64,000 bases of DNA from a virus. Under the pieces are notes generated by a model. The model saw only the letters and a program-made list of their open reading frames with translations, searched no databases and was not told the DNA's origin. The stretch lies in the IMG/VR virus record IMGVR_UViG_3300027733_000032, one strand, 5' to 3'. Made by a program: the position numbers and the translations under genes. Of the stretch, positions 40,104 to 47,608 are shown piece after piece (position 1 is the stretch's first letter; each line of letters begins with the position of its first letter).

Positions 40104-40664
40104 TTATCTATCAGCATTGGGCGGGCGTTCTATGGAGATTCTACCCTCTTCTACCGTCCCAGAAGGGGCCTCCACGGGAACCCATGCTCGTGAATAAGTA
40201 TGATTTTTTATATCCCTATGAATGATGAGTGTTCCGTCAAGCATGAGTTCAAGTTCGTGAAATTTCATACAGAACTTTGAAACAAAACCAGTTTCGTCAA
40301 GTTTTTTGGTCTTACCTAAAGTCCGAACCACGCGAGATAGTTTTTTTGCAACAATTGAACCACGCCCACGATTAACCTGAACGTGGATAATCATTGCGTC
40401 CAATTCGGAACATTCTATGTACGTCACAGGGATTCCTTCAGTGAACATCGCAGCCAAGTGAGGATTTCCTTTAATGAGGCGCACTCTTTGTGTACCATCA
40501 ATGATTTTATTAGTTTCCTTATGAACAATAATTGGAGACAATAAACCCGTTGTTCCTATCGAATCAGCAAGAACGAGCAAGTCTGGTCTGAGAATGTACG
40601 TTGACGTCCAGTCGAATTCTAATAAGTCATTGATATTCACAATGTCAATTTTCATATCATTCAT
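40104..40664 (-). CDS. ParB/sulfiredoxin-like nuclease-domain protein (IbrB-like)
   Basis: LADSIGTTGLLSPIIV...IIDGTQRV...NRGRG; partner of the PAPS-reductase-like gene. Confidence 0.8.
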   Translation of the reverse strand: MNDMKIDIVNINDLLEFDWTSTYILRPDLLVLADSIGTTGLLSPIIVHKETNKIIDGTQRVRLIKGNPHLAAMFTEGIPVTYIECSELDAMIIHVQVNRGRGSIVAKKLSRVVRTLGKTKKLDETGFVSKFCMKFHELELMLDGTLIIHRDIKNHTYSRAWVPVEAPSGTVEEGRISIERPPNADR

Positions 40665-42759
40665 CTTCTTCTTGTTGTAGAGCGGCCAGTCGTACTGAGT
40701 GAGCCTTGGTTTTTGGTCCGACAGGAGAAACCGACGAGACTGTTAGTGAGTTGAGTAGCAAATTGCGAACCAGCCAGTTCATGGGATATGAATAGGGGTC
40801 GGATGCATGCTTTTTCCTAAATTCTGCAGCGTACGACATCGCTCGCCTCTTAAAATCTTCGCCCCAGATATAGGTTTCAATAAATTCCCTAATCTCTGGC
40901 CACCCACCATCTGCGGTTTCTCGGATTAGTTTTTCAATATCAAAATCTGGATACCAGCGTCGCTGTGCGTCGATTTCCGGCCAACACTGCCAGAGCCCAT
41001 CGTAGAATTCTGGTTCCGTCGCAACAACATCACCAATCCGACGAATTGCCACAGCGTGCAATGGAATGCCGACTCGCTTGTTTGAATTGGTCAATGTGGC
41101 GAGGTCGTAATATTCGCAATATTCTGCGCCATGTTCTTCTGAAAGAAACTTGAAAACATCATCAACTTGCCAGTCGTAAATAATCTTTGCAAACTTCATC
41201 GGCAAACCCTTTTTAGACTTGTAGGGGGTAACGATGTAACTTTCATGCAATTTCTGAACAACCGAGCGATATCTGACCATCGACTCGGCAGCACGTACTC
41301 CAGTAATGAAGGCTATGTTGCCAGTCTTTCCCTGAGTCGTGTAATAATCAATATGCTCTGGCAGGGGGCTACGATGGTCTAAGCCGAAGTGGTAAGCCGT
41401 AATTGCCCATTCTGGCATTGGGCGATACAGATTGCATAATTGCATTCGATGCTCGTGCCACAATAATTCGACCATTCGCCTACCAAGAGACCAAACCTCT
41501 GTCCCCGTAGGCAAACAATTCCCCGTGAGAATATGGTCAGCCAGAACAAACGAATGCGTTTTATCTACAACAGCGCAGTAAACTTCATCGCTTCCATCAT
41601 CTTCAACGGAAACAACCTTCCATAAACGCTTACGTCGATTAGTAGATTTAGCAGAAGACAGCCACCTATCTTTGTGATGAGGGATAATGAAAAATTCTGA
41701 AGTTAAATCTTCGCGAGCAATAGTCATTTGCCAAGACTCAGACTCGGCGTTCCCATAAGTGCCGACCACGGCTTTATTTATGCCATGAGTGAAAATTCCT
41801 AGATTCGTACATACTGTCCGGAAAAACTCTAAGTTTTTCTTTTTGGATGATGCGATTGTTACTTTTCCTTCTTTGGATACACACCCATCAGCGGCAAAAT
41901 ATCCAGAAAGCCACCCATAAAGATAGGATGGGGACTCATCGAGTGATGGATAGTCTTTAAAAAAGAAAGGAAGACCAATAGCGCGTGGCTGCTGAATTTC
42001 ATCCTTGCGCGCTCCTGCGCTCGTAGATGTTATGTGACCATCAAAATATTGTTTCATGACAGTATCTTTGTCACCATGAAAAGTTACTTGGCATCCATTC
42101 GAAGACTTATTGCCGTCACCAAATACAAATCCATGAGCAATGCCGAAAGGACTAGGTAATTTGACGTGTCTAAATTTCCAAGCACCAACCAAGCAGTCAC
42201 CTGGCCTTAGGTCTTGAGTTAATCGTTCAATTTTTTCTTCTTTTTGTTTCCCAAGTTCCGTCCATCTATTCCGCACGAACCAGCGGTGGTCGGGCGTCGC
42301 TCTGATTGTCTTGGTGACGCCATTGCGCATTAATGTGACCTTCTGAACATTACGATGACCAAAGTGGCGAATTGGGGCAGTAACCCACACACCCTTATTG
42401 GTCATTAGTTCGTGTTCTTCACCTGCTAGGTCCCTAATCGGAAATGTTCCGCGTCGTGTAATAACTTCAGTATCACCATCGACGCAATACCACTCCATAT
42501 CTACCCAGTCGTAATCCCTTACTTTCATGACATAGTCAAGTAGTACAGGGCTGACCATTTCTTCGTCACGGAAAATTACTTTGACTGGACCAAGTCCGCG
42601 TTCTTCGTGGATTTCTTTGGCTAAATAAAGAACGGCGCTAGAATCTTTACCGCCAGAAAATTGAACACAGACAGTATCGAAGGTGTCGTAAACGTGGCGG
42701 ATACGCTGCCGTGCAGCCTCTACGCACGAAATATCCAGAAACATGCGTTGCCGAGTCAT
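40657..42759 (-). CDS. PAPS-reductase-like PP-loop protein (IbrA/DndC-like) containing an intein
   Basis: VQFSGGKDS PP-loop, FRDEE, ITGVRAAES..RY, PIYDW-like KIIYDWQ. Confidence 0.85.
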   Translation of the reverse strand: MTRQRMFLDISCVEAARQRIRHVYDTFDTVCVQFSGGKDSSAVLYLAKEIHEERGLGPVKVIFRDEEMVSPVLLDYVMKVRDYDWVDMEWYCVDGDTEVITRRGTFPIRDLAGEEHELMTNKGVWVTAPIRHFGHRNVQKVTLMRNGVTKTIRATPDHRWFVRNRWTELGKQKEEKIERLTQDLRPGDCLVGAWKFRHVKLPSPFGIAHGFVFGDGNKSSNGCQVTFHGDKDTVMKQYFDGHITSTSAGARKDEIQQPRAIGLPFFFKDYPSLDESPSYLYGWLSGYFAADGCVSKEGKVTIASSKKKNLEFFRTVCTNLGIFTHGINKAVVGTYGNAESESWQMTIAREDLTSEFFIIPHHKDRWLSSAKSTNRRKRLWKVVSVEDDGSDEVYCAVVDKTHSFVLADHILTGNCLPTGTEVWSLGRRMVELLWHEHRMQLCNLYRPMPEWAITAYHFGLDHRSPLPEHIDYYTTQGKTGNIAFITGVRAAESMVRYRSVVQKLHESYIVTPYKSKKGLPMKFAKIIYDWQVDDVFKFLSEEHGAEYCEYYDLATLTNSNKRVGIPLHAVAIRRIGDVVATEPEFYDGLWQCWPEIDAQRRWYPDFDIEKLIRETADGGWPEIREFIETYIWGEDFKRRAMSYAAEFRKKHASDPYSYPMNWLVRNLLLNSLTVSSVSPVGPKTKAHSVRLAALQQEEDE
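41518..42486 (-). mobile_element. Intein (323 aa) with LAGLIDADG homing endonuclease
   Basis: Begins CVDGDTEVIT (block A); LAGLIDADG-like AHGFVFGDG and YGWLSGYFAADG; ends VYCAVV...HSFVLADHILTGN followed by Cys+1. Confidence 0.9.
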
Positions 42760-46563: not shown

Positions 46564-46875
46564 CTACAGTAGACCTAATCTTTTTGCTTCGTCTTGCGAA
46601 ATATTTTCGCCCTTCTTGTATACCAGAACTCGCGCCTTCGTGTATGGCGTTATCGGCTTTTCTTCCCAAATATCTTCTTCAACGAACACAGTTATCCCGC
46701 CTCCGCCAGATGAAGATGCATCAAATCCAATAATATGCTTAGGCGGTGTGCCGTCGGTACAATCGCCGGTTGGATGACCGCACACAGGACAAGCCTGTCG
46801 GTCGGCTCTTGAAATTCTAATACCGTCAATACCCGAGTTGCTAATTCCATGATATTCAGAAAAATAAAGGTCCAT
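46564..46875 (-). CDS. Hypothetical protein with CPVCGHPTGDC Zn motif
   Basis: ORF track; TACGAT 6 nt upstream of ATG. Confidence 0.6.
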   Translation of the reverse strand: MDLYFSEYHGISNSGIDGIRISRADRQACPVCGHPTGDCTDGTPPKHIIGFDASSSGGGGITVFVEEDIWEEKPITPYTKARVLVYKKGENISQDEAKRLGLL

Positions 46876-46893: not shown

Positions 46894-46969
46894 TGCCCCT
46901 GGCGGGATTTGAACCCGCGTGTCACCCCTACGGTTTCTACGCTTTATAAGAGCGGGCCGATACAGGGGC
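46894..46969 (-). tRNA. Atypical tRNA-like RNA: UAU anticodon loop, no D-arm, enlarged variable arm
   Basis: GCCCCTG/CAGGGGC acceptor stem + A discriminator; T-arm GCGGG-TTCAAAT-CCCGC; CGCT-CTTATAA-AGCG anticodon arm; CCA not encoded. Confidence 0.7.
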
Positions 46970-46975
46970 CTGTTC

Positions 46976-47608
46976 TTAAAATTCTTCTACATTAAATCCA
47001 TCCAGATGCATGGCATGAATCATTGCATCCATCTCCTCGTCGGAGTATTCGTTCATTGGGGCGAGACTCAGGGCCTCCCTTAACATTTTAGGAACTGGGG
47101 CAGTCCTCATGATTTCGTCAAGATTTCTCGTATATCCAGTAGTTTCGCCCCATTCAATGGAGCGCCCTATCTCGTAAGAGTAAGGGACGGTGGCGATTGT
47201 GGTCTGAGTCTCCCCTGTAACTTCATTAATTTCGCAATGCGTCACGGTAATACACTCCTTGACTATATTTTTGCCATCTGCAAATGCTTTACGTAAATCT
47301 GCGCCGTTGAGACGTGTCTTGTCAAATGTTTCAAAACCTTCGGCCACTAGCGATATCGCGTCCACCGCCCACGCCACCCTAATGGCATTGCACATTGCCT
47401 GGCATCGAGGGATTCTCTCAAGAACCGGCACGCGCATGTATTCGTTGCGCAACTGAGCAACCATGGATAGTCGACCTTCGCGCCATCCAAAAAAATTGAA
47501 TGCCAAATCCTCCCCTAATCCATATTCTTCAACCATTAAATCTTTTGCCACTTGGGCACTTGTAATGGTAAGAGCAATTTTGCTCATGTCATCAGGGTAT
47601 TCTTCCAT
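46976..47608 (-). CDS. Hypothetical protein
   Basis: ORF track; TAGTTT 6 nt upstream of ATG. Confidence 0.6.
   Translation of the reverse strand: MEEYPDDMSKIALTITSAQVAKDLMVEEYGLGEDLAFNFFGWREGRLSMVAQLRNEYMRVPVLERIPRCQAMCNAIRVAWAVDAISLVAEGFETFDKTRLNGADLRKAFADGKNIVKECITVTHCEINEVTGETQTTIATVPYSYEIGRSIEWGETTGYTRNLDEIMRTAPVPKMLREALSLAPMNEYSDEEMDAMIHAMHLDGFNVEEF

Follow-up and report, generated by a model that had tools for sequence, protein, structure and literature searches.

What does a 76-nucleotide element encode that begins, ends and carries an anticodon loop like a transfer RNA (tRNA) but has no D hairpin where a tRNA should have one? The element lies at positions 46894 to 46969, on the minus strand, of a 64,000-nucleotide stretch of the virus record IMGVR_UViG_3300027733_000032, which was analysed as a whole and is called the window here. 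A preliminary description had taken it for a D-arm-less tRNA-like RNA with a UAU anticodon and an oversized variable arm, and the minus-strand sequence, stems and loop that it quoted match the letters of the window exactly. Between the 5′ acceptor strand and the anticodon arm the element reads UAUCGGCC, and between the anticodon arm and the T-arm it reads UAGAAACCGUAGGGGUGACAC. Comparison with its relatives leads us to conclude that the gene is very probably a working, AUA-reading phage tRNA-Ile(UAU) built on a permuted tRNA core. By its sequence, it belongs as a regular member to a large family of phage genes with Ile (UAU, GAU and probably CAU) and Arg (ACG, UCU, CCU, UCG and CCG) anticodons. 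Its parts are the following, a position in the RNA being 46970 minus the window coordinate:

46894..46969, minus strand: whole gene of the predicted tRNA-Ile(UAU) with a permuted D-arm, 76 nucleotides
46963..46969, minus strand: 5′ strand of the acceptor stem, RNA positions 1-7, GCCCCUG, with its partner at 46895-46901; 7 of 7 pairs covary
46960..46962, minus strand: U8, A9 and U10; U8 and A9 are invariant and U10 stands opposite U40, analogous to 22:13 (alignments A3 and A4, see below)
46957..46959, minus strand: RNA positions 11-13, CGG, standing in for the 3′ strand of the D-stem (canonical 23-25) and pairing with RNA positions 37-39
46955..46956, minus strand: C14, invariant, the analog of position 26, and C15, the analog of position 27, opposite U31 (alignments A3 and A4)
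46940..46954, minus strand: anticodon arm with stem 16-19/27-30 (CGCU/AGCG) and loop CUUAUAA; anticodon UAU at 46946-46948
46934..46939, minus strand: linker U31 A32 G33 A34 A35 A36, the analog of 43-45 plus a three-nucleotide return to the D-stem; GAAA is invariant
46931..46933, minus strand: RNA positions 37-39, CCG, standing in for the 5′ strand of the D-stem (canonical 10-12) and covarying with 11-13
46919..46930, minus strand: U40, the D-loop look-alike A41 G42 G43 G44 G45 U46 G47 A48 C49 A50, and C51, the Levitt partner of G42
46902..46918, minus strand: T-arm, GCGGG-UUCAAAU-CCCGC; 4 of 5 pairs covary
46894..46901, minus strand: 3′ strand of the acceptor stem, CAGGGGC, and discriminator A76; CCA is not encoded and the next bases are CUC

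The acceptor stem (GCCCCUG/CAGGGGC) consists of seven Watson-Crick pairs, and acceptor stem and T-stem have the 7/5 geometry. Relative to the cloverleaf of the Rfam tRNA family RF00005, the element has a proper acceptor stem, T-arm and anticodon loop (U33 and a purine at 37), whereas the D hairpin between positions 9 and 26 is absent. Standard finders, proposed as a check in the preliminary description, gave split results. RF00005 matched the element end to end with 37.6 bits (gathering score, 29; E value, 2.5e-4), deleting the D-arm (4 nucleotides left) and placing 17 nucleotides in an insert, and this was the only Rfam match in the 64-kilobase window. ARAGORN in bacterial mode called no tRNA anywhere in the window.

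The key to the layout is a helix between RNA positions 11-13 and 37-39. The first clue came from one relative (L061), in which CGG at 11-13 is changed to CCC together with a change of CCG at 37-39 to GGG. Scans of IMG/VR for UAU elements that left positions 11-13 and 37-39 free gave more than 100 distinct sequences, and covariation was analysed in two sets, 102 distinct sequences aligned with MAFFT (A3) and 130 (A4). In both, helix 11-13:37-39 is 99.5-99.7% paired and all three of its pairs covary. Within the set of 102, pair 11:39 is CG in 89, AU in 12 and UA in 1; pair 12:38 is GC in 45, CG in 43 and UA in 12; and pair 13:37 is CG in 54 and GC in 48. In L061 and many others, strands 11-13 and 37-39 read CCC...GGG, CUC...GAG or ACC...GGU. 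The remaining stems behave likewise: all seven acceptor pairs covary (98.6-98.7% paired in the two sets), as do all four pairs of the anticodon stem (99.8% paired) and four of the five pairs of the T-stem, and G53, U54, U55, C56 and A58 are invariant. Shuffled and slid controls, run on the alignment of 102 sequences, score far below the real helices, and RNAalifold, given the alignment alone, returns the same structure, helix 11-13:37-39 included.

What follows the second strand of this helix resembles a D-loop. The consensus U-A-R-N(1-3)-G-G-N-(N)-N-C-A-Y corresponds to A14 R15 .. G18 G19 .. A21, and A41, G44, G45, C49 and A50 are invariant. Between R42 and the nucleotide just 5′ of the T-stem there is covariation in the manner of the Levitt pair 15:48, the pair being G:C or A:U in 93-95% (GC 64, AU 31 and other 7 in A3; AU 99 and GC 23 in A4). 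The core nucleotides U8, A14, R15:Y48, G18 G19, A21, U54 U55 C56 and A58 are all present, in permuted order. The corresponding region of the window reads UAGAAA CCG U AGGGGUGACAC and fits the family pattern of an N-GAAA linker followed by the D-loop-like segment. The GAAA linker is constant in every locus reached via the protein encoded next to the element, where the pattern was not imposed; in the pattern scans that came afterwards it was a requirement. Arg-type members have U in column 15 and A or G in column 31, which gives the anticodon stem a fifth pair. Taken together, the covariation strongly indicates that the D-arm has been relocated, not lost, and that a D-stem of three base pairs encloses the anticodon arm. 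The label "D-arm-less" has to be given up in view of the covarying D-stem analog and the invariant GG, and the 21-nucleotide stretch taken for an oversized variable arm is not one, since it provides one D-stem strand and the D-loop.

The permuted order was put to an in silico exchange, in which RNA blocks 10-36 and 37-50 were swapped and ARAGORN was run on all 271 members of the family (see below). In native order none of the 271 was called; after the swap all 271 were, 257 of them at full length and with the same anticodon, and the swapped form of the window's own element was called as tRNA-Ile(tat), 1-76. With the block boundaries shifted as controls, calls fell to 81 of 271 (+3) and 1 of 271 (−3). 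In canonical numbering, the order of the chain is [1-9][22-45][10-21][48-76]. In known tRNAs, the groove beside 22/23 takes up residue 9, residues 45 and 10 are adjacent, and A21 stacks next to 48. If that geometry holds, the three new joins would link residues that are neighbors in space.

How large the family is was addressed with anticodon-free scans of IMG/VR, which imposed UAW, CU, GAAA and UA, so that the census is a lower bound and covers the GAAA subtype only. After a stem filter, IMG/VR, metagenomes and cultured phages together gave at least 271 distinct sequences on about 380 or more contigs. Counted as distinct sequences, the Ile-type anticodons are UAU (at least 105), GAU (at least 47) and CAU (at least 28), and the Arg anticodons are ACG (at least 42), UCU (at least 29), CCU (at least 12), UCG (at least 7) and CCG (at least 1). 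Anticodons of any other amino acid family were absent from the matches listed, and every anticodon in the family can be reached from UAU through single-base steps. A covariance model (R1) built from 130 members gives permuted genes 80 to 90 bits, and the canonical tRNAs of two phage genomes at most 26.5 bits. In the window its sole match is the element (85.3 bits; E value, 2e-22), which answers the further suggestion in the preliminary description that a model be built from phage homologs. Among 185,579 prokaryotic genomes, 14 of 120 pattern matches are real, all on contigs of metagenome-assembled genomes or uncultured isolates; the remaining matches fail the stem filters and were discarded as chance. 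The permuted scaffold is thus shared by hundreds of predicted phage Ile and Arg tRNAs, and the family is almost purely viral.

The bases that synthetases would read are coupled to the anticodon. A20 is the hallmark identity element for arginyl-tRNA synthetase (ArgRS), and A73 and the anticodon are identity elements for isoleucyl-tRNA synthetase (IleRS). At the analog of position 20, directly behind GG, 91 of 91 Arg forms have A; among the 180 Ile and CAU forms this base is U in 172 and never A, and it is U in the element of the window. The discriminator is A in 180 of 180 Ile and CAU-type members; Arg forms have G, A or U there. Across the family, U33, A37 and A38 of the anticodon loop are retained, and positions 34 to 36 vary. 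If synthetases did not read these RNAs, such strict coupling would be difficult to account for. Four UAU members have C38 (CUUAUAC), among them L461 2645-2721, L506 10762-10838 and L496 4663-4739; apart from one GAU member with U38, C38 is the sole recurrent departure from the fixed loop among the matches listed.

The genomic context of the family is that of tRNA genes. Of 383 instances, 183 lie within 300 nucleotides of a canonical tRNA gene, in all cases on the same strand, and CCA directly follows the discriminator in 89, which is 14 times the chance expectation of 1/64. ARAGORN called 0 of the 383. In its mitochondrial mode the program reports fragments of 50 to 58 nucleotides as "mtRNA-Ile(tat)" inside many permuted genes (L033, L068-L088 and others); the window's subtype gives no such fragment, and fragments of this kind could surface elsewhere as odd partial annotations.

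A further line of evidence comes from the place of the element between two genes:

46976..47608, minus strand: upstream gene for a protein of 210 amino acids, whose stop codon lies 6 nucleotides before the tRNA and which marks the syntenic slot (homologs P0001-P0033)
46564..46875, minus strand: downstream gene for a protein of 103 amino acids, taken from the list of open reading frames (ORFs), whose start lies 18 nucleotides past the tRNA; the tRNA is thus internal to an operon on the same strand

Homologs of the 210-amino-acid protein were gathered from IMG/VR, JGI metagenomes and Logan/ENA assemblies, and the order 210-amino-acid gene, tRNA, 103-amino-acid gene recurs in L006, L010, L013, L016 and L017. 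In 13 metagenome contigs a nearly unchanged 76-nucleotide element follows the same gene, the flanks having diverged and the neighboring protein being 77-94% identical, so that a chance match can be dismissed. Only four positions vary among the contigs whose protein is 77-98% identical, and two of them are a compensatory pair, G17:C29 in the window versus A17:U29; relatives whose neighboring protein is just 77-79% identical differ at four of the 76 positions. To judge from this comparison of sequences, the element is under purifying selection in the lineage of the window.

In more distant relatives the slot holds, on either strand, a canonical tRNA-Ile(UAU) (L001, L002 and L023-L032), the permuted form, once a tRNA-Met(CAU), or nothing. 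On the tree of the 210-amino-acid protein, canonical and permuted forms are interleaved, and at least four switches are needed. Our simplest argument rests on this observation: canonical and permuted forms replace each other in one slot and therefore likely do the same job. The single CAU gene (L035 2177-2252, plus strand) is a canonical gene of the tRNA-Met/Ile2 type and would fit a swap between AUA-reading solutions.

The marker protein itself recurs, conserved, in numerous phage contigs from freshwater and from the sea and has no family match in Pfam, PHROG or NCBIfam. Its AlphaFold model is confident (pLDDT score, 85.6) but gave no Foldseek match at an E value of 0.001 or below, and the best VIA-align Z score, 6.1, was to pilin-like folds and lies within background. 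One JGI homolog is labelled "galactitol-specific PTS IIB", and we dismiss this label, as nothing in our data supports it. The surroundings in the window are phage-like, with a class II ribonucleotide reductase, an intein-split PAPS reductase, a ParB-like gene and a RuvC-like gene. The PAPS reductase-like gene (40657-42759, minus strand; 700 amino acids) matches Pfam PAPS_reduct, Intein_splicing and LAGLIDADG_3 as well as PHROG 2302, and its intein carries a LAGLIDADG homing-endonuclease domain. A near-identity search of GenBank phages with 6 kilobases around the element and an exact 30-mer scan of IMG/VR both gave no match. The nearest cultured phages by ribonucleotide reductase, Maribacter phage Panino and a Manatee Spring virus (each with 47% identity), show no synteny with the window at this locus.

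Members of the family do occur in cultured phages, among them Streptomyces phages of the BE cluster, Microbacterium phage A3Wally and a crAss-like phage of Bacteroides. Streptomyces phage Mildred21 (L683, MF155946.1) has four copies: an Ile(GAU), an Arg(ACG) and an Arg(UCG) gene, which between them occupy 73703-73779, 91367-91442 and 94857-94933, and one variant. In GenBank the Ile(GAU) and Arg(ACG) genes are unannotated, and Arg(UCG) is labelled "tRNA-Phe(gaa)", a label that apparently stems from a GAA read out of the invariant UUGAAA linker. We reject the GAA of UNGAAA as an anticodon because the loop at 20-26 holds the varying anticodon; GAAA is invariant in Ile and Arg forms alike and lies outside any hairpin. 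Published tRNA counts for the BE cluster are therefore probably too low, with one isotype wrong. The variant (86379-86453; gene 147, "tRNA-OTHER") has an Arg(UCU) loop and no GAAA linker and scores 45 bits with R1; further subtypes of rewired tRNAs probably exist beyond the reach of GAAA-anchored scans. In the crAss-like Kehishuvirus "tikkala" (L670, OQ198717.1), a phage of Bacteroides cellulosilyticus, a permuted Ile(GAU) gene (95577-95653) fills the sole tRNA-sized blank, between tRNA-Trp and tRNA-Met. This array (93727-97360) has 20 annotated tRNAs for 18 amino acids, Arg and Tyr being missing, and R1 detected no permuted Arg gene in tikkala.

How may the element of the window work? The chain would run from the acceptor 5′ strand through U8 A9, the strand of the D-stem 3′ half, position 26, the anticodon arm and the N-GAAA linker to the strand of the D-stem 5′ half, the D-loop analogs, Y48 as Levitt partner, the T-arm and the 3′ strand of the acceptor stem, and with this permuted core the RNA would still reach an L shape. 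RNase P and 3′ nucleases could free it from the operon transcript, and a host enzyme would have to add CCA, as none is encoded in the window. Host IleRS may charge the RNA via the anticodon, A37 A38 and A73, and the charged RNA would supply AUA decoding for the phage. ATA is in use in the ORFs of the window (232 times, 12.6 per 1000 codons, 21% of the Ile codons). That a translation system can accept an unusual core is indicated by a synthetic tRNA without the entire D-arm, which is tolerated by an E. coli synthetase, EF-Tu and ribosomes (PMC11551756). Hence, the rearranged Ile(AUA) decoder, one of the options in the preliminary description, is the one favored by the conserved loop, the compensated stems, the syntenic slot, the tRNA arrays and the enrichment of encoded CCA in the family, with two amendments: the D-arm was moved, and the element is not a one-off.

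Several observations weigh against a working tRNA-Ile(UAU). The minimum free energy (MFE) fold that ViennaRNA computes for the window RNA is a different one, pairing CGCUCUUAU with GUAGGGGUG, and the nearest-neighbor model puts this competing fold at −30.5 kcal/mol versus −26.5 kcal/mol for the family structure; we reject it because C43 and A17 of relatives disrupt its pairing. Single-sequence MFE predictions retain helix 11-13:37-39 in just 22 of the 271 members. The anticodon stem of the window has only four Watson-Crick pairs plus a C.U mismatch (C15.U31) before them, and the gene ends without an encoded CCA. In short related loci, ATA makes up a share of the Ile codons of 0.23 with the permuted form, 0.27 with the canonical form and 0.31 with none, a weak and confounded comparison. 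Finally, phages such as Mildred21 have canonical genes for Ile(GAU), Ile(UAU) and Arg(CCU) as well, and with canonical isoacceptors alongside, the permuted copies may serve something other than plain decoding.

The permuted fold may be a counter-defence form, a second and widely spread way for phages to wire the tRNA core, that is still charged by host IleRS or ArgRS and used by ribosomes but goes unrecognized by tRNA-directed defences of the host or by the phage's own attack on host tRNAs, an idea that we regard as possible but doubtful. A tRNA-shaped decoy or shield with little role in translation, which would mimic tRNA-Ile (or, in its relatives, tRNA-Arg) to absorb or escape host defences aimed at tRNAs, such as anticodon nucleases, or to outlast a phage-driven tRNA purge, is unlikely. 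The almost purely viral distribution would suit a decoy, as would the canonical isoacceptors beside permuted ones, the tRNA repair gear of Mildred21 (RNA ligase, polynucleotide kinase, a Ro-like protein and a CCA-adding enzyme) and the plausible effect of an altered core on recognition by nucleases. However, the synthetase identity bases are tightly kept, A20 occurring only with Arg anticodons and A73 with Ile anticodons, CCA is encoded far above chance, and canonical and permuted forms are exchanged at one slot. Features such as these are needed for charging and not for baiting a nuclease, and a tRNA that resists attack and still decodes would be in line with the decoding role that we prefer.

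It is very improbable that the element is a signal for RNA processing, in which the module of acceptor stem and T-arm recruits RNase P or RNase Z between the 210- and 103-amino-acid genes as tRNA punctuation. Its position fits, 6 nucleotides after one gene and 18 nucleotides before the next in an operon of the same strand, and it has no promoter-like or terminator-like site of its own. Yet a minihelix of acceptor and T-arm would suffice for this purpose, leaving the anticodon loop, the D-stem analog, the Levitt analog and the identity bases unexplained, together with the half of the members that lie in tRNA arrays; moreover, every tRNA embedded in an operon is processed anyway. It is hardly credible that the RNA is a tRNA truly devoid of a D-arm, with a variable-arm hairpin of class II type (ACCG-UAG-CGGU) and a flexible, non-L shape like that of mitochondrial tRNA-Ser(AGY). 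The four-base-pair hairpin, 36-39/43-46, can be drawn in most close relatives, and ViennaRNA picks it for L008, but over the 102 sequences it is 67.6% paired, with its middle pairs broken in 54 and 57 sequences and never compensated, the sequence of the window breaks the closing pair, and the fully covarying helix 11-13:37-39 claims the same bases. We therefore reject this hairpin. There is practically no chance that the element is a decaying pseudogene or an integration-site remnant, as which the preliminary description would have discarded a copy with an unconserved loop: the missing ARAGORN call and the canonical tRNA-Ile(UAU) in the same slot of relatives could be read that way, but the loop is conserved, the sequence is near-invariant amid diverging flanks, all stems are compensated, both acceptor strands are present, and more than 270 distinct versions exist on more than 380 contigs, lytic cultured phages included.

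If the element is the tRNA-Ile(UAU) that we take it for, several consequences follow. The family is natural and abundant, and in it the order of the core segments is altered with every helix and tertiary nucleotide kept. If its members are charged and used, the L shape is attainable via more than one chain topology, IleRS and ArgRS tolerate the new one, and standard finders count too few phage tRNAs, as the absence of any ARAGORN call among the 383 instances illustrates; GenBank leaves blanks or, in one case, a misnamed tRNA-Phe. If the counter-defence idea also holds true, the family would prove, by an example from nature, that a tRNA chain has no fixed order of segments. As a compact natural scaffold the family is of use to tRNA engineering, and it gives a testable lead on the conflict between phage and host over tRNAs. 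Since the carriers include cultured phages with known hosts, laboratory study is feasible now.

How does the permuted layout relate to known tRNAs? In recent papers, bacterial-type tRNAs are all described as cloverleaves. We did not find the swapped-D-arm layout in the open-access literature and bioRxiv, including a 2020 review of non-canonical tRNAs, and it may be reported elsewhere. With canonical phage and bacterial tRNA-Ile(UAU), such as gene 109 of Mildred21, the element shares the CUUAUAA loop, the discriminator A, the 7/5 geometry, a length of 75 to 78 nucleotides and the core nucleotides. It differs in that blocks 10-21 and 22-45 stand in the opposite order, so that the D-stem encloses the anticodon arm, and in having no separate variable loop. 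The D-armless tRNAs (mitochondrial tRNA-Ser(AGY), tRNAs of nematode mitochondria and the synthetic "mini HisT" that E. coli accepts; PMC7609411 and PMC11551756) lack the D-stem and the G18 G19 contact and take a Y or boomerang shape, whereas the element keeps a D-stem and GG, has normal length and is encoded by a bacteriophage. Allo-tRNAs, or (8/4) tRNAs, are likewise non-canonical, come from metagenomes and phages and frequently have UAU, but their acceptor/T branches are 8/4 or 9/3, their D-stem is long, ends in a tetraloop and sits at its usual site, their V-arm is long, and their identity is that of serine tRNAs (Mukai et al. 2017, PMC5389517); the element is 7/5, has no V-arm hairpin, and its identity bases are of the Ile type.

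Class II tRNAs (Leu, Ser and Tyr) also have about 20 nucleotides between the anticodon stem and the T-stem, a stretch that in the element lacks a covarying hairpin of its own. Another gene order is also known from the permuted and split tRNA genes of Cyanidioschyzon merolae and Nanoarchaeum, in which the break lies between the halves and a canonical tRNA is regained on processing. Such genes are also mentioned in PMC13092985. As in the permuted genes of the red-algal type, the segments of the element stand in a non-textbook order, but its acceptor ends are at the ends of the gene and the internal blocks are swapped. Since no bulge-helix-bulge or other splicing signal is seen in the element, the permuted order should persist in the mature RNA.

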